Source: Candidatus Azambacteria bacterium
Lineage (GTDB): Bacteria; Patescibacteriota; Minisyncoccia; UBA10092
Direction of reading: 5' to 3'
NCBI GenBank assembly: GCA_003455995.1
Contig: DMPO01000001.1
Coordinates: forward strand, 14,945-78,944
DNA length: 64,000 bases
The position numbers were made by a program, and so were the translations under genes. Under the pieces are notes generated by a model, which was given only the letters and a program-made list of their open reading frames with translations, was not told the origin of the DNA and ran no database searches. Positions 45,672-60,806 of this stretch are shown one piece after another; the stretch's first letter is position 1; every line of letters begins with the position of its first letter.

Positions 45672-46391
45672 CTACGAGCCATATTTTTCTTTAATTTTCC
45701 GAATAATTTCTTTTTCATGCTCCTGGAGAGCACTTACCACCTCATCGACTGCCCGTGCCGGCTCCTTGTCGTAATTTGAATAAATAGTTGAAGAAAAATT
45801 AAGTTTTAAATAAAAGAGATCAATCGTACTTTGTATGATTTTAAACAATGTCCTGATTTGTATCCCAGTAATTTTAACATCATCTTTTTTTAAGTCATTG
45901 TGAACTAAATACTGATCTCTATATGTTTTTAAATCACTAATAAGTTCTTTGTTTCTTAGCAGTCGGTTGCGGATTCTTCTTATATCTTGAAGAGTAAATG
46001 GCTTATAACCCTCAAGAAGTGCTGGAATAAAGTTTTTTTCAATATGGTGTGCTAAAAACTCGTTTTTAGAAAATGAAGAAAAATTGTTTTCAACAAAATC
46101 TAACAATAACTCTATGGTTAATGATTGTTTTTTCTTATTTTTATCAAAAAACTTTGCTAACTCAACAAAGAAATAACAACGGGCGGCTTCTTGCAGCGGT
46201 GAAAAGAAATATGGGTACTTGCCGAATATTTTAACATTTGCATCTGCGTTCTTTTTCCCAACTACATTGGGTGCGGTAAGTTTTCTAAATCTCTCGTAAA
46301 TTCTAAGAGCAGCGAGAGTATTTAAGTATTGATCCCTCAAGTCCCCAGTCCATTTAAGCGCTTTTGCAAAGTTATTCTGATGAGAATACAT
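45672..46391 (-). CDS. Hypothetical protein with HEPN-like Rx4-6H motif
   Basis: YRDQYLVHND contains R-x5-H; lies immediately downstream of the DUF262/DUF1524 nuclease gene; 239 aa. Confidence 0.35.
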   Translation of the reverse strand: MYSHQNNFAKALKWTGDLRDQYLNTLAALRIYERFRKLTAPNVVGKKNADANVKIFGKYPYFFSPLQEAARCYFFVELAKFFDKNKKKQSLTIELLLDFVENNFSSFSKNEFLAHHIEKNFIPALLEGYKPFTLQDIRRIRNRLLRNKELISDLKTYRDQYLVHNDLKKDDVKITGIQIRTLFKIIQSTIDLFYLKLNFSSTIYSNYDKEPARAVDEVVSALQEHEKEIIRKIKEKYGS

Positions 46392-46459
46392 AGTTTAAAA
46401 ATTAAAGCTCCTCGAACTTTGATTCTATCTTAACTATATTCGCACCCACTTTAAGCCCG

Positions 46460-48112
46460 CTACTTTCCGGCTTGTAAATCATTGAAAATTTCTTTGAAAA
46501 TCAGGAATCGTTTGTGTAAAAAAGTATTAAATCTACTTCGTATCTTATTTAATTTCTTCTTCTTCTTTTTTCTTATTAGAAACGGACGGTCAAATTGTTC
46601 CAGGTTTTTCAAATCCTTGAAAGGCAGCAGTTCAGATTTTAAATAGTTGTTAATTTTTTCTATACTTATATTTCCATAAAATTCAATTTCAGATTTAAGC
46701 CATTTAGATGGAACTTCCTTACCTTTGCGGATATTTTGGTCCTTGTTAAGATAATGCAGATTTAATATATTATTTACCTCGCTACCAAGCACCCCCTTCT
46801 TATACAAATCAAATGGATAAAAATGGTCATCCTCCGGACTGTGTTGCTTTGTTTCTACATCTATTCGGTTGGTAGGATTGCCATCAATATAGACCGGATG
46901 CTGTTTCCATAAAGCTAATTTGACGATATTCCTTACAGAAGACCTTCCGGCTTTTATATCTGTTGTATCGAAAAATGATTTCACTATGTCAACTTTCTTT
47001 ATAGTAAGATTTGTTTCTTCTATTGCCAGTCGCTTCATTTCTATAGCATCCGGACCAATATTTCTATTATAACCAGAACCAATATATCTATTAGAAAGAG
47101 ATGCTCTCCAAAACCATTTTTTAAGTTCTGTTTGCTGTTTTGAGGTAGGCTTGTTATTAAAATAAAAGAATATACTTAACACAGTTAACAAAGTCTGAGA
47201 CGGTAGTTCACTTACTGAAATAATTCCATATTCTCCTTTTAGATACTGCATTGCATTAGATACGGCTTTGATACCATCATCGAATATCTTATTGTATTTT
47301 TTAGCATCCGCTTCCTCACGAACGGCTTGAGCAATTTTCTTCAGTGCTTTGATATCTATCTCTATAACACCTTTATCCTTTTTATTACCCATCTGCAACT
47401 GGCAAACAAGGGCGAAAACATGAATAAATGTTACCGTATTTATATCCCGAGTCAGGGATTCTCTGTTATGTCTTTTCCAAACTCTAAGCATTCTTTCAAA
47501 ATCAGTATGCTTGGTCCATGTTTCGGACAAGAAAATTGATTCCGTTGCTATCCTTGTCCCTGCTTGATTTATTCTTTCAAAAATCTCAATAGCATTTTTA
47601 TAATTATCTAAAGAAATAATAACCACCGGAAACATATAAGATCTCCCGATTAGATTAAGCAGTTTCTTAAATTTAATATCTCTAAAAACACGTTTATCAT
47701 AATCAAGAAAATATCCCTCCTCATTTTTATTAATGAAAAATTTATCAAAATCTATCAATTGGCTATAGCGAGTATCGCAAATATCATGAAAACTATCCCT
47801 AACTTGATGCTGTGAAAATACCTTTTGCCTTGCCAAATAATAAAGAGATAGAAGCCTTTGCTGACCATCTAATACAAGAAATCTTTTAGCCGGCACGTTA
47901 TCCCCATCAATGGTTCGAGCATCAATTTTTTGACCAGTTTCCCACAATACAAGGCTGCCAATAGGATATTTTTTTCTAAGACTATCGAATAGTTTCTTAA
48001 CTTGGGGAATTTTCCAAACATAACCTCGCTGAAATTCCGGAACGGCTACATGGTTTCTTTCAATAAATGAAATTAGCGTTTTTAGATTAAATTTATATAC
48101 TTTTGTAGACAT
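46460..48112 (-). CDS. DUF262/DUF1524 (GmrSD-like) nuclease
   Basis: N-terminal ParB/DUF262 motifs FQRGYVW and DGQQRL; C-terminal DUF1524/HNH-like region (DDHFYPF ... NILNLHYLNKDQNIRKGKEVPSKW). Confidence 0.65.
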   Translation of the reverse strand: MSTKVYKFNLKTLISFIERNHVAVPEFQRGYVWKIPQVKKLFDSLRKKYPIGSLVLWETGQKIDARTIDGDNVPAKRFLVLDGQQRLLSLYYLARQKVFSQHQVRDSFHDICDTRYSQLIDFDKFFINKNEEGYFLDYDKRVFRDIKFKKLLNLIGRSYMFPVVIISLDNYKNAIEIFERINQAGTRIATESIFLSETWTKHTDFERMLRVWKRHNRESLTRDINTVTFIHVFALVCQLQMGNKKDKGVIEIDIKALKKIAQAVREEADAKKYNKIFDDGIKAVSNAMQYLKGEYGIISVSELPSQTLLTVLSIFFYFNNKPTSKQQTELKKWFWRASLSNRYIGSGYNRNIGPDAIEMKRLAIEETNLTIKKVDIVKSFFDTTDIKAGRSSVRNIVKLALWKQHPVYIDGNPTNRIDVETKQHSPEDDHFYPFDLYKKGVLGSEVNNILNLHYLNKDQNIRKGKEVPSKWLKSEIEFYGNISIEKINNYLKSELLPFKDLKNLEQFDRPFLIRKKKKKKLNKIRSRFNTFLHKRFLIFKEIFNDLQAGK

Positions 48113-48131
48113 TTTTTATCAAGCAATGATA

Positions 48132-50930
48132 TTACCATTCAAACATCTCAACTATGTTTTCAATGGCGTTTTTAATGCGATCAATGATTCCCTGTCGTTC
48201 TTTGATTCGAGGCGCCTCCGGTAATAAATCGACAATATCTTGTCCGTTAGGCGGTTTTTGCGCGTACAGGTATTCACCGATCAGATGTTCAAACTTTTCA
48301 ATCGGGATATTTTCAGTTTGAGCGATAATCTTCAAACTCTCGGAACGTTCACTTGCCCAAAATTCACTAAACGCTTTTTCAACATCGTCTGACCTGCCAA
48401 TTTTGGGCAAATTTTCTTCAATGAATTTCTTGATTAAATCTTTCTTCTTACGAAGTTTGACATCCCTATCAAATAGACGCAAAATTTCTTCCGTTTTCTT
48501 TTTACGGACCACATCGGAGCTAATATTTTTAAGACCGGCAATGAGTTGGATAATATAGTCAAAGTTAATAATATCCCGAACGGTCAGTTCAATTTCAAAG
48601 TCAATTTGGTCCAAAATAGATTCAATTTCGCTATTATTATTTTTACGATCCTCATAAACATCCAAGTATTTGCTTTGATAATCATAAAATTCCTGCTCCG
48701 TTATTCCAATGTCATTAAAAGAAAATTCTGCGAATGTCTCGAGCGACGATTTGATACGAAGTAAATCACGAAATATCTTTACAAATTCCGCTTTTTCTTC
48801 TTCTCCTTGCAACCCATCGACACTAGAAACAGTCGGCACCTTTTCTCGTAATTCCGCCAGTTTATCTTCAAATTCTTTTTTCTGGACTTCATACGGTTTT
48901 TTAAACACAACATCTTTGGCGTTTTCATCACCAAAAAGCGCCAATGCTTTATCGGTTGCTTCTTTTAAGTTTCTAAATGAAACAATATTGCCGTGAGGTT
49001 TGTCAGAATTTAAAAGCCGATTTGTTCGTGAATATGCTTGAATCAATCCGTGATATCGCAAATTTTTATCCACATACAGCGTATTGAGCCGTGGACTATC
49101 AAACCCCGTCAAAAACATATTAACCACCAAAACGAGATCGACTTCCTTATTCTTTATTCTCTTCTGCAAATCCCGGTAATAATCATAGAAACGATCAGTT
49201 GAAAAGTTTGTTGAATATCGTTTGTTGTAATCCTTTATACAGTCCTCTAAGTAATCTCTTGAATGTTGATTGACAACTGCCCCCTCGTCGTCAAAGACAT
49301 CAACATCAAGTATGTCGGAGCTCTCGTCTTCGTTCGCTTTATAGGTAAAAATTGTCGCAATAGAAAAATCTTCCGCTTTCTTATCCTTGAGTAATTTATA
49401 ATACTTTTTTAATACCTCAATAGATGAAACGGCAAATAATGCATTAAACTTTCCCTGTTTTGTTTTTCGTTTCCAGTCCGCCAGTATATAATCCGTAATT
49501 TTATTCAACCGGTCGGCGCTTTCAAGCACTTCTTGGGTATTAATGCCTTCAATCATAACATCGGCAAAAATATCTGCGTCTAATGTATCCGGATCTTTTT
49601 GCGTGTATTTCCCAACATATTCAACAGCAAAACCAAGCACATTATTATCTGAAATCGCATCGGTAATAATATACTTATGCAAACATTCGCCAAAGACATC
49701 AACGGTCGTTACTCCTCCCACATTATTATCAGCAAAGATTGGCGTTCCGGTGAAGCCAAACAATTGAGCTTTTTTAAAGAATCCTTTTATCCGAGCATGT
49801 GTCTGCCCAAATTGACTTCTGTGACATTCATCAAAAATCACAACCACTTTTTCATTGGCTAAATATTCAAAATGCTTGAGATGAGATTCTCTCCCGATAG
49901 CGATATCAAGCTTTTGAATTGTAGTAACGATAAGTTTTCTATTTTTATCTTCAAGTTGCTTCACAAGACTATGCGTGTTATCAGTGCCATCCACCGCCCC
50001 TTCGGAAAAGGAGTTGAACTCTTTTGTTGTTTGAATATCCAAGTCCTTTCTATCCACCACAAAAAGCACCTTTTTAACTTCAGGCATTCGTGAAAGTACT
50101 TGACTTGTTTTGTATGAAGTTAATGTTTTGCCTGATCCTGTGGTGTGCCAAATATAGCCATTTTTATCAGATTCACGCACTCGGTCCTCAATCGCTCTTA
50201 CTGCATAATATTGATATGGGCGAAGGGTCATCGGGATTTGCGTTGCTTCAGCCAATACAATATATTCAGCAATCATTTCTGATAGAGCGCATTTTTCCAG
50301 AAATGCATCGGCAAACTCATCTATCTTGGTAATTTTTCTATTCTTCACATCCGTCCAGTAGAAAGTTTGTTCAAATGATTGTTTTGGATTATTTGAAAAA
50401 TATTTTGTATTTACTCCGTTTGAAATCACAAATATTTGGATATATTCAAACAGTGTTCCCGTAAATGAGTGTTTGTGATAGCGCTGGATTTGGTTAAAGG
50501 CCTCTTTGAGTTCCATACCTCGGCGCTTAAGTTCAATTTGCACCAATGGCAAGCCATTCACCAACAAAGTCACGTCATAGCGATTTTCATAGCGTCCGGC
50601 TTGAGTAATTTGCTGCGCAACTTGATATTCATTTTTGCACCACTGATCCATATTGAAAAACCGCACATAGAAAATGCTCTCATCATCACGAGTCAGGACA
50701 AGGCGATCACGCAAGGTCTTGGCTTTTTGAAAACGGTCGCTTTTGTTTATGTGATTCAATATGCGAATAAACTCATCATCAGAAAAAGTTGTTTGATTGA
50801 ATTTTTCAAGCTGTCCTCGCAGGTTCGCAACCATCGCAGCGGCGTCTTCCAAGACAACCGAAGAAAAACCCAACCGCCCAAGCTGTTCAATCAAGGTCTT
50901 TTCAAGTTGTTGCTCACTTTGGTGGGTCAT
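48132..50930 (-). CDS. hsdR: Type I restriction enzyme R subunit (HsdR)
   Basis: SF2 helicase motifs TGSGKT and DECHRS, an N-terminal PD-(D/E)xK nuclease region and the HsdR C-terminal domain; 932 aa. Confidence 0.9.
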
Positions 50931-50931
50931 A

Positions 50932-52800
50932 TTATTTTTTTATAAACGGTTGAATCGATCCATTAATAAAACTTTTCAACATAAGAGACCTTGGTGTTTT
51001 TTTGTTTTCAAACTTTTTTTCTATTTCTTTAATCCCACTTTTTAACCTTTTCTTTAATTTTTTGAGAAATGGGATTTCCTGCTCAATGCCATTTATTTGA
51101 GTCCTTAAATTTTCATACCTATCTTTAAAAGTTTTCTGTAATATATGTAACATAATTGGCCTACCTTTGATTAATATTTTTGCTATTTCTTCTACATCAA
51201 AATATTGAAAATAAGCATCTCCATTTCCTGTATTATGCAAAAAATTATAATTTATTAATAAATCTAAGCTCTGTTCAGTGTTTTTTTCTCCCTTTAAGAT
51301 AGGCATCAATTCGTTTTTAATCTTTTCTTTGATGAATATTTCTTTATGGCTCTTTATCTTTTCATTAATTAATTCAATCAATTTTCCCCACTCTTCATTT
51401 TCCATTCCAAAATATTCAAGCCCATAAGTACTTTTTCTCCAACTAAAACCCCACTCCTGTTCGCATAACTTTAAAGGAAATTTCTTTTCTTTAATTAATA
51501 ACTCGATGTATTCTTTGCCCTCTTTAAAAATATCTTTTTTGTCTTTCTTCAATAAACCTTCTTTAGAAAAATTCAAAAAAATTCCAAAAACATGTAACAC
51601 CACATAAAAATCATCATAGTCTCTATTTTCCCACTTTTTTTGTACATCTTTTAAGTTACTAAAAAAATCCTCATCGCTGTGATCATAGCGATGCCAAAGT
51701 TTTTGCCATGATTCTTTGTTTACACCAATAAGATTTTCAAAATTACCAACTAATTCTCCATTTTCTTTTTCTGATAAATTAATTCCTTGTAAAATTTTTC
51801 CTAATATATTCACATCAAAACAAGTGACCCAATGAGACAGTCCTTCGTCATATTTATCTAAAAAGTGGTCCTTATTTTTGTCATCTAATCCTTTAAAAAA
51901 TTGGGGATACTTTTTAAAAAAATCTTCACTTTTTATATTACCTCTCTTGTATTCAATAAAAATGACAACAAATTCATAGAACATTTTTTCAAACAATTCA
52001 ACATTTTCTTTTACCTTGCTTGAAAAACTTTTAAAGAAATACTCAAAGCTAGATAACGCTTGCTGTATTAATCTTAAATTATCATATTTAGACTGGGTAA
52101 AGATTTTTGAAAGTAATTTTTTTATATTTTCAGAATAATTTATTAAATCATCGCCCATCACCCCCTCGGTAAACAAAGTTATTGCCTCCTCCTGTGAAGG
52201 ATTAATGCAAAATTCTTTCCCAATCAATTTTTCTTTAATTTTTCTATATTTATCACCACTCTTAGACTCTAGAAGATCTTCTTCATTCGCAACTAAAATA
52301 ACCTTTTGATTTTTAAATTCAACGAAATTATTTATATACCCGAGTAATTTATCAATTTCAATATTACATCTTTCAAGATCATCAAAAACAAAAACACAGC
52401 CCTTACTTTTCTTTAAGAAAATATCCACCAACAACTCATCAGCGTCAGAAGGAACCCAGTCTCTAATTTTTGGTATTTTTTTAATGTTTCTGAGTATGCT
52501 ACTTGCAAAAATATTATATTTTTCTGGGACAAAAGGAATCAGTTCAATGATTATTTTTTCTTTTATCCCGTTAAAACTATCAACACCATACAAGCTAATA
52601 TGTAAAATCTTTTTTTCTTTTTTTATATCAATGTAGTTCTTAATAAAATAAGTTTTCCCGCAACCCCACTTTCCTTTTAATAAGACAGCAAATGGAAGAT
52701 TATTTTCGAAATCACAATAATAATCCAAATATTCTTCTATATGTTTGTTTATTATCATTGTATTTATACAAACAACCCCTGCATCAAGCCCCTTTTCCAT
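50932..52800 (-). CDS. KAP-family P-loop NTPase embedded in the hsd operon
   Basis: Walker [14 protein letters not shown] and Walker [11 protein letters not shown] fit the KAP pattern. Overlaps the hsdS 3' end by 37 nt (or starts at the alternative M15, 52758) and ends 2 nt before hsdR. Confidence 0.65.
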
Positions 52801-53984
52801 TGCTCGGCTTGGACGATTTGTTGTTGTTTTGATTCTATTATTTTATCTATTGAAGTTAAAAATCCCGCAATTTTTTGCTGTTCTAAGAATAAGGGGACCG
52901 GCACAAAAAAATTCTTTACAATTTTAGCATTCAAGTTTCCTTGCGTGCCGGTTTCAATGAAGCTATGCACTAACTTTTTATAAAAAAATAAATAATAATA
53001 TAAATATTCTAAATTAATAATTTTACTATTTGGTATTAAATTGATCATTGCCTGAGATGTTGCAAGAGGTATTTGGTTTATAGCAACAAACCCGACGCTT
53101 GCATACATTGAATATATGAGTGAACCCTTTGGCACAATCCATGCTGATGAATTTTTTAGACCCTCTTCACTTATACTTTTCTCAGTTTGCAATATATATT
53201 TTCCACTCTTTGTCATGTCGGCAATCGAAAGAAATGGGATACTGCCATCATAGTATTCTTTCTTTGTTGAGGTTGGCGTTCCTCCACTCTTTGCCTTATC
53301 ACAAATTTCCCCCAGTTTCTTCTCCTCCCACTTCGGGAACTCCTTTCCATCCTCATCCTTGAAACGGATTTCTTGTGCAAAGATTTTTTGCATCATTCCT
53401 TTTTTGTAAGATTCAAAAGATTCTTTTTGCGCCTGCAGATTTTCAATCCACGCATCCGTTGATCTTAAAAAATCAGAAATTTTTTGTTGCTCTGGAATGG
53501 ATGGAAAAATAACCGGGCATCTTAAAACTTCATCTTTTCTTAAGTTTGTTTGACTTACGCCATTATCAAATTTTAAAAAATATTTATTTCGATTTAATAT
53601 TCTAATCAAAAAGGGACTTACAATTTCTTTTGATTTAATTCCACCAATTCTTTGATTGAGTGTATAAGTATTATCCTCATTAACTAAAAAGCACTTACTT
53701 ATTGCCTTACCATTCGGAATATCACTCATAACAATAGCAATGTCGTCTTTTTTAAGTGAGGATATCTGTTTATCTGAATATTTTTTAACCTCGCCATTTT
53801 GTGAAATAAATTTTGAATTTACAACAATATATTTTCCATATTCTGAAATATCTTGCTCGTGAGCTTTTCCATTCCAAAATTTAGAAACCTCCCCCAACTT
53901 ATTCTCCTCCCACACACCAGAAAAACCTGGAAAGCGAAGTTTCGGTATTTTTTTAGTTTCTAATTGTACAGCTTTACTTGGCAT
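52764..53984 (-). CDS. hsdS: Type I restriction-modification specificity subunit (HsdS)
   Basis: Two target-recognition domains separated and followed by conserved coiled-coil repeats (...LPVPLFLEQQKIA ... IPEQQKISDFL...). Confidence 0.85.
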   Translation of the reverse strand: MPSKAVQLETKKIPKLRFPGFSGVWEENKLGEVSKFWNGKAHEQDISEYGKYIVVNSKFISQNGEVKKYSDKQISSLKKDDIAIVMSDIPNGKAISKCFLVNEDNTYTLNQRIGGIKSKEIVSPFLIRILNRNKYFLKFDNGVSQTNLRKDEVLRCPVIFPSIPEQQKISDFLRSTDAWIENLQAQKESFESYKKGMMQKIFAQEIRFKDEDGKEFPKWEEKKLGEICDKAKSGGTPTSTKKEYYDGSIPFLSIADMTKSGKYILQTEKSISEEGLKNSSAWIVPKGSLIYSMYASVGFVAINQIPLATSQAMINLIPNSKIINLEYLYYYLFFYKKLVHSFIETGTQGNLNAKIVKNFFVPVPLFLEQQKIAGFLTSIDKIIESKQQQIVQAEQWKRGLMQGLFV

Positions 53985-53986
53985 AA

Positions 53987-55564
53987 CTAAAATGGTTTAT
54001 TGATTTTCAATTCATTGCAAAATTTTTCAATCTTGTTTTTCAGACCGAGCTCGTTTGCGTGCAATTCTTTCAACCTCTTTGAAACCTCTTTAATATCCAC
54101 TGCTACTTCTTCCTCAACTGTGTCCACATAGCGTGGGATATTTAGATTGTATTCATTTTCTTTGATTTCTTTTATGCTTGCTCTGTGTGAATATTTTTCT
54201 ATTTCTTTGCGACTTTTATAGGTATTAAAAATCTTCTCAATATTTTCATTGGTGAGTTTGTTTTTATTACCAATCTTTTCAAAGCCTTTGGAGGCATCTA
54301 TAAACAGAATGTCTTCATCATCTTTGCGACATTTTTTAAAAATAAGAACTGTTGCTGGAATAGCTGCCCCATAAAAAAGATTCGAAGGAAGTCCAATGAC
54401 TGCATCAAGATAATTTTGCTTTTCTATGATGTATTTTCTAATATGGCCTTCGGCGCCGGACCGGAAAAGCGCCCCATGAGGCAATACAATAGCCATAGTG
54501 CCATTATCGCCGAGGTGATAGAGCATATGAGTTACAAAGGCATAATCAGCTTTATTTTTTGGAGCTAATCGCCCATATTGAGAAAATCGATCATCATGCG
54601 CTAGTTGTGGGTCGCTATTGCCTTTCCACTTTGAGGAAAAAGGTGGATTGGCGACGATTGCCTCCGCCTTAAGGTCTGCGTGCATATCCTCTCTAAGGGT
54701 ATCGCCTTGGCGTATTGAAAAACGATCAAAGCGCACTCCGTGCAAAATCATATTCATTCGGGCAAGGTTGTAGGTCGTCGGGTTGAGCTCTTGTCCATAA
54801 TATTTTACAACTTCGGTAAATTCGCCAAGACGAAGTAAAAGCGAACCAGAACCACAAGTTGCGTCATATGCTGATTTGATGCGTTTTTTATCTACAGAAA
54901 CAATTTGAGCAAGCAAGCGTGATACTTGAGCAGGAGTATAGAACTCACCACCTTTTTTACCAGCGCCGGCAGCAAATTCTCCAATCAAATATTCATAAGC
55001 ATCGCCAAGAAGATCGCTTTTGGCGTCTTCAAGCTTAAAATCAATACCATTAAGCAATGTGAGCACTTCAACAACAACTTCATTCTTTTCACTCTCACGA
55101 GAACCAAGTTTCGTGGAAGTCAGGTCCACATCATCAAACAGTCCTTTGAAGTCATCCTCACTTGCGGTTCCTGCCGAGGTTTTTTCAATAGCATTAAGAA
55201 TATTTTTAAGATCCTCCAGAATAAAAGTTTTTTGATCTTTTATTTCACCTTTTCCCTTTTTGACTAAATATGAAAAAAGCTGTGACGGTCTTAAGAAAAA
55301 ACCAAGTTCATCAATGCAAGCCTTTTCTATATGCTTCAAATAGTCCTTCCCCTCCTTTGTGTTTTCTTTTATTTCAGCAAAAGTGATTTTTTCACGAGCA
55401 AGAAGTTTTTCATTTACATATCGCTCAAGTTTTTCAGAAAGATATTTATAAAAAATAAAGCCAAGAATATAGTTTTTATATTCATCGGCATTCATTTTGC
55501 CTCGCAGCACATTAGCCACGCCCCATAACTGTCTCTCTAATATCCTTTTTTGTTCTTCTGACAT
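53987..55564 (-). CDS. hsdM: Type I restriction-modification DNA methyltransferase (HsdM, N6-adenine)
   Basis: HsdM N-terminal domain, an FxGxG-like SAM motif (DATCGSGSLL) and catalytic NPPF (VANPPFSSKW). Confidence 0.92.
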   Translation of the reverse strand: MSEEQKRILERQLWGVANVLRGKMNADEYKNYILGFIFYKYLSEKLERYVNEKLLAREKITFAEIKENTKEGKDYLKHIEKACIDELGFFLRPSQLFSYLVKKGKGEIKDQKTFILEDLKNILNAIEKTSAGTASEDDFKGLFDDVDLTSTKLGSRESEKNEVVVEVLTLLNGIDFKLEDAKSDLLGDAYEYLIGEFAAGAGKKGGEFYTPAQVSRLLAQIVSVDKKRIKSAYDATCGSGSLLLRLGEFTEVVKYYGQELNPTTYNLARMNMILHGVRFDRFSIRQGDTLREDMHADLKAEAIVANPPFSSKWKGNSDPQLAHDDRFSQYGRLAPKNKADYAFVTHMLYHLGDNGTMAIVLPHGALFRSGAEGHIRKYIIEKQNYLDAVIGLPSNLFYGAAIPATVLIFKKCRKDDEDILFIDASKGFEKIGNKNKLTNENIEKIFNTYKSRKEIEKYSHRASIKEIKENEYNLNIPRYVDTVEEEVAVDIKEVSKRLKELHANELGLKNKIEKFCNELKINKPF

Positions 55565-55849: not shown

Positions 55850-56407
55850 CTATCTTCTTAAGGATTGAATGGCTTCAGAGGCCTCACTTCTGGTGAGCCC
55901 ATCAACTTGTGATTCCCACCGGCTCTTTTCATCCTCGTCTGTAATATTCGTGTGTACAAGCTCAAGTAGATAGCTTTTCTGCCGGTCGGTTATAGAATCG
56001 TCTCGTTCAATCCCCGCCCCTTCATATACATTTTCAAGCCGCAAAATGTCTAAGCTCTTGCACGCTGAATTGGCTGCTGACATTAAAGCGCCGTTCAAAC
56101 AGGAGAAAATAATGCGCTCTATACCGCTATTGATTCTCGAGATAATCGATGAGCCGTGACCTATGCCCACAGGCCGGCCATCCTTGCTTAAGATGCATTG
56201 TACCGCAATAAGGCCAGGAGTCTTTAAGGTTGACAGGGTTCCAGTATCTTCGGAGAAAGTGGCGCTAAGATTATAGGTTCCACAAAGCTTTCTTACTTCC
56301 TGGCGGATTGGATGACTCTCGGACTGCGTGTCGAGCGTCTTCTCCATCGCCACCCTTACCGGATGTGGTTGAAAAGTAGCTATCGCCTGACTTTTGTAAT
56401 TGTTCAT
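55850..56407 (-). CDS. Hypothetical protein
   Basis: A 185-aa ORF with no recognisable motif; co-directional with the downstream small genes. Confidence 0.4.
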   Translation of the reverse strand: MNNYKSQAIATFQPHPVRVAMEKTLDTQSESHPIRQEVRKLCGTYNLSATFSEDTGTLSTLKTPGLIAVQCILSKDGRPVGIGHGSSIISRINSGIERIIFSCLNGALMSAANSACKSLDILRLENVYEGAGIERDDSITDRQKSYLLELVHTNITDEDEKSRWESQVDGLTRSEASEAIQSLRR

Positions 56408-56412
56408 GGTTT

Positions 56413-56610
56413 TTAGATTTTGTTAATTGTGATGAAATTGTCCGAATATTCGACCTCAACTTTACTGCCGACGGTAAACCCGGATTCGAGAAGGAACCTA
56501 TTAGCAATTCTAAGCATCGGCTTTTGCTTATCATCGCCGGGAGCCTCTAATATGGTCATTTCTCTTTTCGGACCATAACTTAATCTCATGATTAATTTAG
56601 CTTCGTTCAT
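56413..56610 (-). CDS. SymE/AbrB-fold (SpoVT-AbrB swapped-hairpin) small protein, toxin- or DNA-binding-like
   Basis: PMLRIANRFLLESGFTVGSKVEVEYSDNFITI matches the SymE pattern (l-lkG-WLeeaGF--G--v-V-v--g-ivI); 65 aa. Confidence 0.4.
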   Translation of the reverse strand: MNEAKLIMRLSYGPKREMTILEAPGDDKQKPMLRIANRFLLESGFTVGSKVEVEYSDNFITINKI

Positions 56611-56951
56611 AATTTTCGTTTTTCTACTTGTTTACAATAGAAAAGGCAAACACCTCTTTTGATTTTCTTAATAATGTTTCCTACTGGGTCTTTTACCTCG
56701 ACGAAAGTAATTGACCGAATGGCTTTTTCTCCCTTTTTTACTCGATACCCAAGCTTCCACCATTGGGCGAAAGTAAGGGCATTATTATACGGGTCATACT
56801 TCTTCACTTCTTCATGACCCCAGCGCTTTTCTATCTGTTTGGCTACCAGGTCATAGGTAACCGAAGACCCTGTATAGGGAGATATACGGGGAGGAACACT
56901 CATAATTTCATTTACACTTTGCATATACGGCTTGATTATCACTAACGCCAA
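56607..56951 (-). CDS. Hypothetical protein
   Basis: A 114-aa ORF whose stop overlaps the SymE-like gene start (4-nt overlap). Confidence 0.4.
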   Translation of the reverse strand: MALVIIKPYMQSVNEIMSVPPRISPYTGSSVTYDLVAKQIEKRWGHEEVKKYDPYNNALTFAQWWKLGYRVKKGEKAIRSITFVEVKDPVGNIIKKIKRGVCLFYCKQVEKRKL

Positions 56952-57145
56952 AATACGCTCGACTAGGCATATTAATGAAGAATTTGGCTAATTAATTATT
57001 TTTCTTCATCAATAATCAAGTGGTGTGAATTAAGGTTTGGGGGGTGATTCGATAGTTTAAAATAGAGGCTATGGATGTTATAAAAGGGAACCCGGAGACG
57101 GTTTTTCTTGATGGGGGGGCATTTTTGGATTCTTTTTGGGCTTTA

Positions 57146-57335
57146 AAAATCAACTGGCCTAAAAATTTTTGCGCAGATTTTAGAAAAAAGAGGCACAGAT
57201 AAGCCAAAATAATATTTTCTCGCAGAGAAAATATTATTAAAGTCACGGCGTGACTTTATTGACTTTATTAATTTTAACTTTTTCTAATTTTTCAAACTTT
57301 CCTTAAAAATCACTTGGCCTAAAAAAATTTTGCGA
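57146..57335. repeat. ~30-bp imperfect direct repeats (AAAAATCAACTGGCCTAAAAATTTTTGCG / AAAAATCACTTGGCCTAAAAAAATTTTGCG) plus palindromes, in the non-coding region of the island
   Basis: Direct-repeat copies at 57146-57175 and 57305-57335. Perfect palindromes AATATTTTCTC-GCA-GAGAAAATATT (57218-57240) and AGTCACG-G-CGTGACT (57242-57258). Confidence 0.55.
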
Positions 57336-57479
57336 AAAATTGAGGTTAAAGGGTGGGCAAGATAAAAAACACGGCTATAAAAGTCGTGTTTTGGCTTATT
57401 TATGCCAAATTGGTTGACTTCCGTAGAAATTTTTGACCTTTAGTATAATTTAATAAGAATCAAAGTTGTAATTCGATTT

Positions 57480-57960
57480 TGGTTCCTAACTTTTAAAACA
57501 AATGGTGAGCGGCCGGAGATAATAAAGCCCGGTACGTTGCAAAGGCAGCAATGCCAATGCGGGGAGATACTGGCAGGGTGTGGGGGCGATCGTTAACCCG
57601 CCTGTTGGAGGCCATTAAAATAACGACTCTCTCTGATGCTCTCTAGACAGCATTCTAGAGTCCTTATGCGGACAGTGCCTGATACGAATCGGACATTGTC
57701 GACATGAGGTTCAGATAGGGATGCAAACGCCTACGTAGTCCAACAGGTGAGCGTGGGTATCGCATACCAAAGCGGCGGGGCCTGAGGCAAAACTAATTGG
57801 TTCGGTGGCTGTAATGCCATGCGGATGAGCTAGGGGTACCCTGTACGACAGTCTGCCTGACGTGTACACCGAGAGACAGCGGGATTATGTACACAGGACC
57901 AAATGACGTATCCAAATAGGACGGCATTCTCCCCCCTCTTGTCCAAATCGGTAGCAGGGT
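57480..57960. other. GC-rich (~55%) ORF-free structured region, candidate ncRNA of unknown class
   Basis: No ORF of 60 aa or more in ~760 nt. Numerous stems (CTCTAGA-N6-TCTAGAG; GTGTACA-N19-TGTACAC; CCGGAG...; GGGGCGATCG...). Sharp compositional contrast with the AT-rich flanks. Confidence 0.4.
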
Positions 57961-58007
57961 AATTCACAAATCAATAACTGAAGTTTTTAATAGTAATATT
58001 TAAATCA

Positions 58008-58553
58008 ATGAACAATCATTACATGATTGAAGAATGTTTTTTTATAACGCCGAGAAATGTCGGGGGAAGGTTTGGCCATGTTAGGAAGTTAGGAATCAAT
58101 GAGCTCGAAAACCGCAGTGATATTTCTTATTGGTTTGACGATATGTCTGAGCCAACATGCCTATTTGTCAGCGTAAATGGCAATGAGCCGCAGAAATTTG
58201 ATTGGGAGCCGGTTGATATTACTTTTGGAGAAACAGCCTATATTCGCTGTCATTGCGGTTATAGAGCAAGAAAACTGTATCTACCTCCTAATGGCAAAGA
58301 ATTTAAATGCCGGAAGTGTCATAAATTACAATATCAGCTCACCAAATTCAACCGCCACTCAATTGCGGGCAGGTCTCTATATAAAATGAATCGTCTTCAA
58401 AAACTCGCCGATAGCAGGGCGAATATAGGTAGAATTTTATACAATGGCAATTATACAAAAAAGTTCACACGATTTCTTGGATTGTGCGACCGGGCTGGCT
58501 TGGAAAGCATTGTGCGGGGTGCTAAAGATCTAAAAACACTAATGAATGGATAG
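58008..58553 (+). CDS. Hypothetical protein with Cys4 zinc-ribbon-like motif
   Basis: CHCGYRARKLY...FKCRKCH; 181 aa. Confidence 0.4.
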   Translation: MNNHYMIEECFFITPRNVGGRFGHVRKLGINELENRSDISYWFDDMSEPTCLFVSVNGNEPQKFDWEPVDITFGETAYIRCHCGYRARKLYLPPNGKEFKCRKCHKLQYQLTKFNRHSIAGRSLYKMNRLQKLADSRANIGRILYNGNYTKKFTRFLGLCDRAGLESIVRGAKDLKTLMNG

Positions 58554-58709
58554 GTTATTTTAACGAAGTCAGAATATCCCCTATGTCTGTTTTAAGACAA
58601 ATTGTTCGCTACTGCCGTGGCCCCGTTAGGATAGAAGCCGGTTATTGTCTTAAATTGTATTCCTAAAGATGCTCAATTTTACCTTTTGGTACTGTAGTAT
58701 ACTAAGAAT

Positions 58710-58955
58710 ATGACTACAAAAGAAAACAAAATAAAGCTGGCGAGTATCATTTCGGTGTTTGTGCATGACGATATTGGCATTTTGGAAGCGTACACTGCAA
58801 CATCATGTTCATTTGTCGTCATTGAGGGTATCAGTTTTGGTTATCAATTCATTGAATCTGAAAATAGTGAAACTAATTTAAACAGGGCTTTTGACATTCT
58901 TTTTGACGAAACACTCAAGCGTTTAAAATCAAAGGGCATCCATTTGTCACTATAG
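58710..58955 (+). CDS. Hypothetical small protein
   Basis: An 81-aa ORF with no recognisable motif. Confidence 0.3.
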   Translation: MTTKENKIKLASIISVFVHDDIGILEAYTATSCSFVVIEGISFGYQFIESENSETNLNRAFDILFDETLKRLKSKGIHLSL

Positions 58956-58978
58956 ACAATTAAGTATAAAATAAACAT

Positions 58979-59155
58979 ATGGAATTTTTTACAAGAAAAG
59001 AAGTCGCAGAATTTTTTAGAGTTAACCCTAGAACAGTGGAGCGTTGGTTGAGAAATGGAAAACTAAAGGGCTATAAACTTGGCGAAGGCAAGACAGCGCC
59101 ATGGCGCATCGATATGGTGGAAATAAAAAAGTTTTTAGCAAAGAATAAAGTATAA
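58979..59155 (+). CDS. Excisionase-type HTH (Xis/HTH_17-like) protein, 58 aa, below the ORF-track size cutoff
   Basis: Manual translation MEFFTRKEVAEFFRVNPRTVERWLRNGKLKGYKLGEGKTAPWRIDMVEIKKFLAKNKV. Ends 4 nt before the serine recombinase ATG. Confidence 0.55.
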   Translation: MEFFTRKEVAEFFRVNPRTVERWLRNGKLKGYKLGEGKTAPWRIDMVEIKKFLAKNKV

Positions 59156-59159
59156 ACAT

Positions 59160-60806
59160 ATGGCCGATATCAACAACACTGAAAAACATTGGCTAATCGC
59201 CTTTTATGGTAGGGTCTCAACATCGCTGCAGGAGGAACAAAAAACAATTGAGACTCAACTCATGGCAATGAATGATTTCGCCGATAAGAAATTCGGTAAA
59301 GGTAACTATACTGTAGTCAAAGAATATCTCGATGAAGGTTGGAGCGGAGACAATATTGTAAGACCTAGTCTTGACCAGCTTCGGGTTGATGCAAAGAAAA
59401 AGATTTGGGACGCAGTAATAATTTATGACCCGGACCGATTGGCTCGCAGATATTCATTGCAAGAGTTGGTAATGGACGAAATAAAAGATGTCGGGATTGA
59501 AGTTATTTTTGTTACCGTATCTACTCCCAAAAACATAGAGGATAAGATCCTTTATGGGGTACGGGGACTGTTCGCTGAATATGAGCGAGCAAAAATATCG
59601 GAACGTTTCCGCCTTGGGAAACTTCTTAAGGTTAGAAATGGCAATATTCTTACAACAGAGGCTCTTTATGGATATGATTACATTCGCAATGACAAGATAA
59701 ATAAAAAGCCCGGCTACTATGTGATAAATGAAGAAGAAGCAAGGGTTGTAAGAATGATATTTGCTTGGGTTGGCGAAGAAGGATTAACGCTCCGGCAAGT
59801 AGTGAGACGATTGCAAGAAATGGAGATAAAACCAAGAAAAAGTAAAAGGGGGGTTTGGAATACAAGCACTTTATCTACTCTACTAAGACACAAAGCGTAT
59901 ATAGGAATGGCTCATTGGGGTAGTTCCTATGCGGTAGTTCCAAAGAATCCTACAAATAAGGAAAAATATCGGCAAGTAAAAAAGAGTAGTCGAAAAATCA
60001 AACCGGAAACAGAATGGATTGCGTCGAACATCCCAGTGCCACCTATCATTGGGGAAGAACTATTTATGAAAGTGCGAGAACAATTAAAAACCAATTTTGC
60101 GCTGTGCCAACGGAATACCAAAAATGAATATCTACTTGGCGGTAAAATATTTTGTTCTTGCGGCACAAAGAGATGTGGCGAAGGTCCTCAACATGGCAAA
60201 CATCTTTACTATCGTTGCAGTAATAGAATCTATAACTTCCCTCTGTCCCCTACATGCAATGAGAAAGGAATTAATGCGAGAATCGCTGATAAATTAGTAT
60301 GGCAAAAAATCAAAGAGTTTATGACTTCTCCGAAATTATTATCACGACAAATCAATCGACGGAAAGATATCCGGAAAAATAAAACTCTACCATTAATTGA
60401 AAATATAGGAATAGCGGAAAAAGAACTTGCGAAACTGAAAGCGCAGGAAGACCGCTACATCAAGGCATATGGAAACGGCGCATTAACTATTGAACAATTA
60501 AAAGAGCAAGTAACATCAATAAAAAGTCATATGGCAACATTTGAATCGCAAATAAGAAAGGTCAATCAAGAAAAAAGCCGGATTGATACTGCTCCAACAC
60601 CAACTGAAAAAGAAATAAAAATATTTACAGATGAGGCAGCCAAAACTATTAATGACTTGAATTTTGAGACAAAACGGACAATCATTAGAAATACTGTAGG
60701 AAGAATTATTGGCACACAGCGACAGCTACAGGTGTCTGGCGAAATACCATTAACACTAAATTATGTCACATACAAAACTAACTATCGGTATAGTTGGCCT
60801 GCCTAA
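59160..60806 (+). CDS. Large serine recombinase (resolvase/invertase N-terminal domain + recombinase domain + zinc ribbon)
   Basis: Catalytic Ser context FYGRVSTSLQEEQ, resolvase-like N-terminus, recombinase domain, Cys cluster (CSCGTKRCGEG...YYRCSNR) and a coiled-coil C-terminus; 548 aa. Confidence 0.88.
   Translation: MADINNTEKHWLIAFYGRVSTSLQEEQKTIETQLMAMNDFADKKFGKGNYTVVKEYLDEGWSGDNIVRPSLDQLRVDAKKKIWDAVIIYDPDRLARRYSLQELVMDEIKDVGIEVIFVTVSTPKNIEDKILYGVRGLFAEYERAKISERFRLGKLLKVRNGNILTTEALYGYDYIRNDKINKKPGYYVINEEEARVVRMIFAWVGEEGLTLRQVVRRLQEMEIKPRKSKRGVWNTSTLSTLLRHKAYIGMAHWGSSYAVVPKNPTNKEKYRQVKKSSRKIKPETEWIASNIPVPPIIGEELFMKVREQLKTNFALCQRNTKNEYLLGGKIFCSCGTKRCGEGPQHGKHLYYRCSNRIYNFPLSPTCNEKGINARIADKLVWQKIKEFMTSPKLLSRQINRRKDIRKNKTLPLIENIGIAEKELAKLKAQEDRYIKAYGNGALTIEQLKEQVTSIKSHMATFESQIRKVNQEKSRIDTAPTPTEKEIKIFTDEAAKTINDLNFETKRTIIRNTVGRIIGTQRQLQVSGEIPLTLNYVTYKTNYRYSWPA

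Follow-up and report, generated by a model that had tools for sequence, protein, structure and literature searches.

A probable structured RNA gene and its neighbouring control region in a large-serine-recombinase island of Patescibacteria

The interval between positions 56952 and 58007 of a 64,000-nucleotide stretch of Candidatus Azambacteria bacterium (contig DMPO01000001.1, positions 14,945 to 78,944; this whole stretch is termed the window here) is the gap between two divergent operons of an island that carries a large serine recombinase. On the left lies an operon that runs from an ArdC-N-like gene through a SymE-like gene and the genes for a 185-amino-acid (aa) protein and a helix-turn-helix (HTH) protein to hsdM, hsdS, a KAP NTPase gene and hsdR, while on the right the genes for a 181-aa Zn-ribbon protein, an 81-aa protein (p81), an HTH_17 excisionase-like protein and the 548-aa recombinase follow one another in that order. 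The interval itself is divided into an AT-rich half, which fits a divergent promoter and operator region, and a GC-rich block, which is very probably the gene for a structured RNA.

Conservation and fold of the GC-rich block

The GC content of the block is 0.50-0.55 over ~57500-57900, against 0.29-0.38 in its flanks, and the preliminary description of this DNA was right to state that it holds no open reading frame (ORF): stop codons occur in each of the six frames (3-9 per frame), and the + strand has all three types, with TAA in every frame. Homologues were sought with blastn and nhmmer, with a degenerate DNA pattern against metagenomes, and then by looking up homologues of the Zn-ribbon and ArdC-like proteins. 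A protein-anchored scan located the Zn-ribbon gene in three genomes of the candidate phyla radiation (CPR), and a copy of the block that is 73% identical over 160 nt follows the Zn-ribbon gene at the Nomurabacteria locus L002, where it is encoded on the other strand. With the window included, five distinct sequences of this RNA, designated type 1, were found in Azambacteria-, Nomurabacteria-like and other metagenomic contigs: W (window 57499-57947, + strand; identical copy in L017), M (L037 3395-3894, +; partial copy in L038), N (L002 6830-7284, −; identical copies in L018 and L020), S (L016 10439-10894, −; identical copies in L024 and L025) and X (L019 944-1421, −; identical copy in L014). 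They represent about three deep lineages, with pairwise identities of 52-61% between lineages and 90% between L002 and L016 (metagenomic members, L037 left out).

The preliminary description had suggested looking for the segment in other genomes, and it does recur in serine-recombinase islands, always adjoining the gene for the 181-aa Zn-ribbon protein; the type-1 RNA is restricted to one family of such islands in tiny CPR/Patescibacteria of groundwater. Its position immediately before the recombinase module, also remarked on earlier, is true of the window but is no rule. The RNA lies upstream of the Zn-ribbon gene and in the same direction in the window, L037 and L019, whereas in L002 and L016 it comes after this gene and is encoded on the opposite strand, so that the two converge.

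The conserved core of the RNA (57499-57947, + strand) is bounded by the motif GGUGAGCG on its 5′ side and the C-rich tail CCCCCCUCUUGUCC on its 3′ side and is matched in the window by the family covariance model, CM R1, with 178 bits. Ahead of it stands a 9-bp hairpin, H0 (GAAUCAAAG / UUUUGGUUC; 57457-57485, +), which was read directly from the sequences and is kept in L037 through A-U to G-U and G-U to G-C changes; it probably marks the 5′ end of the transcript. Since a promoter-like motif is followed directly by H0, the RNA can be placed at ~57455-57950 on the + strand.

Helices H1-H5 of the 5′ core were scored on the MAFFT alignment, and those that MAFFT misregisters (H5, H6, H9, LR and PK1) in registers set by hand. 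Sliding the 3′ partners by 1-3 columns lowers the share of paired cells in the 5′ core from 94.4% to 23-45%; nine pairs are changed on both sides, and none of 500 shuffles reaches the observed values for pairing, double changes or covariation. All helix coordinates refer to the + strand of the window. The fold begins with H1 (57508-57538; AGCG-GCCGG / CCGGU-(A)-CGUU), which closes an invariant 12-nt loop, AGAUAAUAAAGC, and has 95.6% of its cells paired and two pairs with double changes. H2 (57539-57560; GCA..GGCA-GCAA-UGCC..UGC) is 100% paired, contains a C-G to U-A change and is capped by a GNRA tetraloop, GCAA, that becomes GUAA in L037. Next comes GGGGAGA (57561-57567), which pairs with UCUCCCC at 57928-57934 to form the long-range closing helix, LR; this helix is compensatory at 4 of its 7 positions, reading GGGGAGA/UCUCCCC, GGAGC/GCUCC and GGGAAUA/UAUUCCC among the lineages. 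H3 (57570-57608; CUGGCAGG-GUG-UGGG ... CCCG-CCUGUUGG), which comprises helices 3 and 4 of the MAFFT alignment, contributes its loop (CGUUA, 57591-57595) to a pseudoknot, PK1, with the linker at 57621-57625 (UAACG). All five pairs of PK1 are compensatory, and three different complementary 5-mer pairs are found: CGUUA/UAACG, GGUCC/GGACC and CCCCA/UGGGG.

Towards the 3′ end, the invariant CUCUGAUG stands just before H5 (57641-57660; CUCUAGA-CAGCAU-UCUAGAG), whose loop CAGCAY is conserved and whose stem is compensatory at 5 of 7 positions. H6 (57662-57709) is a long hairpin with an internal loop; its outer stem, CCUUAUG/CAUGAGG, is compensatory at 7/7 positions and its inner stem of 12 bp at 8/12. 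A variable middle domain (57710-57861), in which a hairpin CCUACG...CGUGGG surrounds the conserved (A/U)CC.AAC...CGUGG, could not be fitted with a structure common to the subgroups. It is followed by H9 (57862-57894; GUGUACA-CCG ... CGG-GAUUA-UGUACAC), compensatory at six of the seven positions of its outer stem and with a conserved CACAGG after it, and the RNA ends with the 3′ strand of LR and a conserved pyrimidine tail, CCCUCUUGYCC (together 57928-57947). The motifs that are invariant among the members lie in loops and junctions (AGAUAAUAAAGC, GGGUGUGGAG, CUCUGAUG, the loop CAGCAY, CACAGG and GACGGC..UUCCCCCCUCUUG). Invariant G-U pairs (e.g., columns 74-139 and 84-132) and the GNRA loops fit the + strand of the window only, which identifies this strand as that of the RNA.

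A separate feature of the fold is that the H5 loop region, GACAGCAUUC (57646-57655), is nearly repeated as GACGGCAUUC (57920-57929), just before the 3′ strand of LR. The same pairing of GACAGCAUUC/GACGGCAUUC-type motifs is seen in the other lineages, and it may reflect an internal duplication or a shared binding motif.

The many stems that had been noted in the block are thus borne out by the compensatory changes among homologues, which affect at least seven helices, LR and PK1 among them. Rfam 15 (4227 covariance models) returned nothing relevant to the block at gathering thresholds on the whole window and nothing at E<=1 for 56000-59000, and the earlier proposal of an element-encoded structured RNA outside the known families agrees with this absence of a match and with the covarying helices of the homologues. 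Judged by comparison of the sequences, the ~450-500-nt RNA is a new family, strand-specific, structurally constrained and very probably encoded by a stand-alone gene; no RNA or island family of this sort was found described in the literature on Patescibacteria.

The AT-rich control region

The AT-rich half had been credited with ~30-bp direct repeats and two perfect palindromes, and both kinds of element prove to be real. The repeats are 28 nt long (57143-57170 and 57303-57330), lie 160 bp apart and are identical at 24 of 28 positions, while the best 28-nt window in 200 dinucleotide-preserving shuffles had at most 22 matches; a third, partial copy is located at 57417-57435. The first copy lies inside a conserved operator-like motif, 57124-57181, which consists of the repeat and its upstream flank. 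Segments at L002 5879-5935 and L033 3012-3067 match it at ~76% identity over 57-59 nt and sit just upstream of the rightward promoters there. Palindrome 1 (57208-57221 / 57225-57238) has 14-nt arms that are 100% complementary, against a longest perfect arm of 11 in 200 shuffles of the same kind, and is abutted by palindrome 2 (57238-57258), whose 9-bp arms are also perfect and which looks like a bidirectional terminator or an operator. A further, terminator-like hairpin, AAAACACGG..CGTGTTTT (57366-57392, + strand), has 11 pairs followed by a T-rich tail and has an equivalent at the same place in L026.

The two sides of the region carry conserved signals of their own. Near the start of the ArdC-like gene, the alignment of four islands of the same layout (window, L037, L026 and L033) reveals a nearly invariant ATCAAGTGGT box (57015-57024), which is probably a leftward promoter or an element of the 5′ untranslated region. 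On the opposite side stands the promoter-like motif TTGACTTCCGTAGAAATTTTTGACCTTTAGTATAAT (57415-57450, + strand), with TATAAT at 57445-57450, which holds the third partial repeat. Conservation of this motif, CCGTAGAAATTTTTGACCTTTAGTATAAT, extends to L037 and L019, where it directly precedes the RNA as in the window, and to L026 and L033, where it stands before GC-rich blocks that are unrelated to the type-1 RNA. The small ORFs of the AT-rich half show no conservation in related islands. We also observed G6 and G7 runs on the + strand (57040-57046 and 57114-57120), with similar G-runs at the equivalent place in L033 and L037.

The view that the AT-rich half is a protein-binding control region is supported by the conservation of its repeat and promoter-like motifs in related islands, and 56952-57455 fits the divergent promoter/operator region of a large-serine-recombinase island, with terminator-like hairpins. 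As in iteron-type plasmid origins, spaced direct repeats of ~19-28 nt and palindromes adjoin what would be the initiator module. However, a phased array is lacking here: two good copies and a partial one are irregularly spaced, at 160 and 104 bp, and no Rep or other initiator gene is encoded. Because the third copy overlaps the promoter-like motif of the RNA, operator sites fit better than iterons, and an iteron origin accounts less well for this half than a promoter/operator region does.

Sister islands with a Rep gene and the setting of the island

In five distinct islands of this kind (L001, L022, L029/30, L031/32 and L035/36), a gene for a rolling-circle Rep of ~273 aa (PF23343, REP_ORF2-G2P) is located directly before the Zn-ribbon gene. 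Rep and the type-1 RNA exclude each other: five loci have Rep, five have the RNA and none has both, and Rep is still absent from L002 and L016, in which the RNA lies outside the Rep slot. A motif, GGACTCGAT..AGGAACAC, is found no more than ~30 nt ahead of the start codon of rep in all five Rep loci (L001 5120-5141; L022 4656-4678, − strand; L029 4154-4175; L031 3126-3148; L035 2766-2788) and is absent from every RNA-bearing locus, and we regard it as a candidate double-strand origin or nick site of CPR rolling-circle modules. In most of the loci it is preceded by GGGAAAA(A)TCCC or a similar short inverted repeat.

The same slot can be filled in other ways. L026 (4050-4470) and L033 (3270-3800) also possess the Zn-ribbon gene and have GC-rich (47-61%) non-coding blocks behind the promoter-like motif they share with the window. 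Neither nhmmer nor CM R1 with its filters off detected any similarity of these blocks to the type-1 RNA, and none was detected between the two; the L026 block includes a 115-codon stop-free stretch that is not protein-like. These candidate blocks may be further RNA families. In L027/28 the slot is taken by an unannotated gene for a 315-aa protein.

The RNA is invariably accompanied by the Zn-ribbon gene (58008-58553, + strand, in the window), of which more than 64 loci are known. The 181-aa product of this gene could be assigned to no fold family: an AlphaFold2 model with a predicted local distance difference test score (pLDDT) of 84 gave no fold match in the PDB. Further along the rightward operon are the HTH_17 excisionase-like gene (58979-59155, +) and the large serine recombinase gene (59160-60806, +), the 3′ end of which overlaps the start of ychF (60763) and forms the right end of the island; ychF is followed by rpsF-ssb-rpsR and recA. 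The overlap thus identifies the interval as the right arm of an island that is in the integrated state and occupies ~43-60.8 kb of the window. The right end was inspected in two elements, the window and the Nomurabacteria relative L002, and both abut ychF, with the recombinase and ychF overlapping at 60763-60806 in the window and at 10675-10742 in L002 and with ychF products that are 48% identical. The shared junction in an Azambacteria and a Nomurabacteria element indicates that islands of this family integrate at the 5′ end of ychF in different CPR classes. Elsewhere in the window there is no second copy of att repeats from around the junction, as expected for serine recombinases.

On the left, the ArdC-N-like gene (56607-56951, − strand; likely start 56924), first of its operon, matches Pfam ArdcN at E=2e-4, under the cutoff; 25 homologues occur in Parcubacteria-type contigs, and the gene is syntenic in all related loci. 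Translationally coupled to it is a 65-aa SymE-toxin-like ORF (56413-56610, −; Pfam E=1e-5, likewise under the cutoff), and the pair is syntenic in most related islands. The cargo at 45672-55564 is a defence cluster that includes genes for an AbiU2 HEPN protein (45672-46391), GmrSD (46460-48112) and a type I HsdR (48132-50930), along with a KAP-family P-loop NTPase (50932-52800) that sits between hsdR and hsdS; hsdS and hsdM are also part of it. Related islands carry other type I restriction-modification (RM) sets, a Dcm/Vsr pair, radical-SAM genes or, in L024/L025, a diversity-generating retroelement (bAvd with a reverse transcriptase, RT). Between a DUF805/Zn-ribbon gene and the AbiU2 HEPN gene of the window lies a LOOT RNA (RF03000; 45441-45557, −; 75.4 bits against a gathering score of 46.4), so that, together with the RNA of the GC-rich block, two structured RNAs without an assigned function are present on one island.

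The proteins that neighbour the interval are 100% identical to those of Candidatus Azambacteria GW2011_GWE1_42_9, in agreement with a host from the CPR/Patescibacteria. Searches of IMG/VR for the island family, with three DNA patterns and with the Zn-ribbon protein both as a single sequence and as an alignment, gave chance matches only, which places the family outside IMG/VR, and a blastn search for distant matches in phage and plasmid collections gave none.

Possible roles of the RNA

The mutual exclusivity of Rep and RNA, together with the position of the RNA, leads us to propose that it serves replication or maintenance independently of Rep. The same exclusivity lends indirect support to an origin, which the preliminary description had listed among its possibilities. 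In this speculative model, the excised island circle would be replicated or maintained without an initiator encoded by the element, and the RNA would stand in for the rolling-circle Rep module, either as a primer or origin RNA or as a recruiter of host enzymes. We consider a divergent control region joined to a stand-alone RNA gene that replaces Rep function to be the best overall explanation of the interval, albeit a tentative one that could well prove wrong. The narrower claim that the RNA has a replication or maintenance role in place of Rep is somewhat more doubtful. Less likely still is the bolder version, in which a large pseudoknotted RNA class would have taken over the role of an HUH initiator as an RNA-only determinant of replication or maintenance, possibly catalytic or recruiting host enzymes, and in which the unrelated RNAs of L026 and L033 may fill the same slot.

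Precedents for an RNA in such a role come from two systems. RNA II of ColE1, which is structured and ~550 nt long, is driven by a promoter and takes the place of an initiator encoded by the element; it diverges fast between incompatibility types (summarised in PMC7157519). The present locus is similar in that a promoter-like motif precedes a structured RNA of ~495 nt and no Rep is found in the window or the other RNA-bearing loci. In contrast to the ColE1 RNA II/RNA I pair, it offers no identifiable antisense partner resembling RNA I and no G-rich hybrid-forming tract in the RNA sequence, its 3′ tail is rich in pyrimidines, and there is neither homology nor a match in Rfam, which includes RNAI. 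The second comparison is with cluster A parABS mycobacteriophage prophages, some of which have non-RepA replication origins that are transcribed (Wetzel et al. 2020, PMC7157519): there, too, one family of temperate elements carries either an initiator gene or a transcribed, ORF-less region of ~400-500 bp, and both variants adjoin a maintenance or recombination module (PMC7157519). The phage origins differ in that their necessity and sufficiency were shown experimentally (PMC7157519), while the role proposed here is deduced from sequence comparison; the protein replaced is a theta-type RepA there and an HUH rolling-circle Rep (PF23343) here; the two are not similar in sequence, and no conserved secondary structure is reported for the phage RNAs. 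The hosts also differ, Actinobacteria there and Patescibacteria here, and the present islands integrate by means of a serine recombinase.

Several points weigh against our proposal, beginning with the RNA itself. The fold does not stand out in the window sequence alone, since the minimum free energy (MFE) z-scores of the block (−1.33 for the + strand and −0.48 for the − strand) are not significant against shuffles, so that the stems are shown only by comparison with homologues, and registers set by hand may be biased towards pairing. The exclusivity of Rep and RNA rests on 10 distinct loci only, and the unrelated blocks of L026 and L033 suggest that the slot may simply be a hotspot for cargo. 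As regards mechanism, the Rep that is replaced is an HUH nickase of the rolling-circle type, and an RNA primer would imply another mode of replication; the conserved pyrimidine-rich 3′ tail disfavours a persistent RNA-DNA hybrid of the ColE1 kind on grounds of hybrid stability. Furthermore, the pseudoknot, GNRA loops and invariant loops exceed the needs of a primer and resemble those of ornate RNAs to which no function has been assigned.

It is about equally likely, and hence also doubtful, that the RNA is such an ornate, trans-acting molecule with no part in replication, comparable to ROOL, GOLLD or OLE. It might be a decoy in anti-defence or serve as a scaffold, or it might be expressed early from the control hub of the island and regulate excision or transfer. 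Its complex architecture (pseudoknot, long-range helix, GNRA loops, invariant sequences in the loops) speaks for this, as do the defence and anti-defence genes that abound on the island (type I RM, GmrSD, AbiU2, ArdC-like and SymE-like), the presence of LOOT on the same island, and the unrelated GC-rich blocks in the same slot, which suggest fast-evolving cargo. ROOL, GOLLD, OLE, raiA and HEARO are several hundred nt long, GC-enriched relative to their hosts and built of many covarying helices and pseudoknots, and they often reside on prophages or mobile elements with a function that is mostly unknown (PMC12286853). The type-1 RNA shares their length, GC enrichment, covarying helices, pseudoknot and carriage by mobile elements; it has no detectable homology to any of them, belongs to another phylum, and is tied to the Zn-ribbon gene and the serine-recombinase island while being mutually exclusive with Rep. 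A role of this kind would also leave unexplained the absence of Rep and its upstream motif from every RNA-bearing island, even where the RNA lies outside the Rep slot. Complementary targets of the invariant loops or the tail were sought within the five elements and none is conserved, which also speaks against the guide-like RNA envisaged in the preliminary description. Improbable by comparison is an element acting at the DNA level, in which the + strand would fold as single-stranded DNA (ssDNA) and serve as the single-strand origin (sso) of a rolling-circle replicon or as a promoter of the Frpo/ssi type near an anti-restriction gene. The sister islands encode an HUH Rep, and relatives therefore pass through ssDNA; the block resembles sso cassettes in that its position and orientation vary between lineages; an ArdC-like gene is adjacent; and G-T wobble pairs are tolerated in ssDNA, which makes strand specificity compatible with this view. 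Elements of the sso, Frpo and ssi kinds are non-coding, strand-specific folded cassettes that shift position between replicons and are associated with Rep or anti-restriction genes, and the known sso and Frpo elements have one or two long hairpins in 150-330 nt. The likeness of the block to ssoA/T/U/W and Frpo/ssi is thus that of a non-coding, strand-specific folded cassette of variable position. Those elements, however, are shorter and simpler and act as DNA, whereas the ~450-nt multi-helix fold found here, with its long-range helix, pseudoknot and conserved GNRA tetraloops, is of RNA type and has a conserved double-strand promoter-like motif directly upstream. Rep and its cognate motif are missing from the RNA-bearing islands, leaving no rolling-circle replication for an sso to serve, and there is no relaxase domain among the Pfam matches of the window island. 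It is the absence of Rep and the RNA-type features of the fold that make an ssDNA element less likely.

A long cis-acting leader of the operon for the Zn-ribbon protein, p81, the excisionase and the serine recombinase, resembling a riboswitch or attenuator, has a still slightly smaller chance of being correct. In the window, L037 and L019 the RNA does follow the promoter-like motif and precede the Zn-ribbon gene, all on one strand, and in the window no strong terminator separates RNA and gene, but in L019 an additional 84-aa ORF and a strong hairpin intervene between the two, and Rfam gave no riboswitch match. A simple leader role is ruled out because in L002 and L016, as in their copies L018/L020 and L024/L025, the RNA is intact in structure and yet lies downstream of and convergent to this gene. 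That Rfam models have missed a highly diverged catalytic or housekeeping RNA, be it a group I or II intron or an RNA like that of RNase P or like omega/HEARO, is very improbable. One report (PMC13011429) describes group I introns as common in Patescibacteria and as escaping standard tools, and the size range fits. No exons that would flank an intron were found, the flanks being non-coding and different between lineages, and there is no split tRNA; for the intron core there is neither an Rfam match nor a core motif visible by eye, although the group I models are known to be insensitive. ARAGORN found no tRNA or tmRNA in the window and, allowing introns of up to 700 nt, no intron-split tRNA in four family members. 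At E<=10, the window block, L019 and the L026 block gave only chance matches across the 4227 families, with 12-22 bits against gathering scores of 35-66. Bacterial RNase P RNA (GGAAAGUCC / ACAGAA..GGCUUA in P4; CR-I to CR-V) was rejected as no RNaseP model matched. Two strings are reminiscent of it, one that is GAGGACAGUCC-like and belongs to L026 and one, GCGGACAGUGCC, that belongs to the window, but they are part of the strongly covarying local hairpin H6 and not of a long-range helix of the P4 type. Neither a P4-type signature nor GUGYG...domain V survives comparison across members, and no IscB, TnpB, IS110 or RT partner is consistently adjacent. Least probable of all, and refuted as far as sequence analysis allows, is a decayed protein-coding gene, such as a dead rep, or a recombinase att site. 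The block does fill the slot of rep in sister islands, but, in addition to its stops in all six frames, tblastn of the five Reps and the 315-aa protein of L027 against it gave nothing at E<0.1, and its substitutions are compensatory in helices and without a codon pattern. A known RNA family and a decayed gene had been named at the outset as the results that would overturn the idea of a new element, and both checks came out negative; the att region suggested at the same time does not hold, since the interval lies ~3 kb inside the island from the ychF junction.

Beyond the classical set, large structured RNAs are seldom met with in bacteria, and each one has opened new biology, as illustrated by OLE, by the cages formed by ROOL and GOLLD, and by HEARO, the guide of IscB. 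The assets of the type-1 RNA in this regard are its clear covariation, its defined genetic context on a serine-recombinase island of uncultured CPR bacteria, an invariant protein neighbour without a known fold and, in the form of Rep versus RNA, a natural swap experiment; this contrast between sister islands makes the function of the RNA directly testable and may reveal by what means mobile elements are replicated or maintained where the bacterial genome is minimal. In addition, the control hub of a vehicle for defence islands in Patescibacteria is mapped here for the first time. Should the RNA prove to be non-replicative, it would still be a new ornate RNA family fit for structural study.

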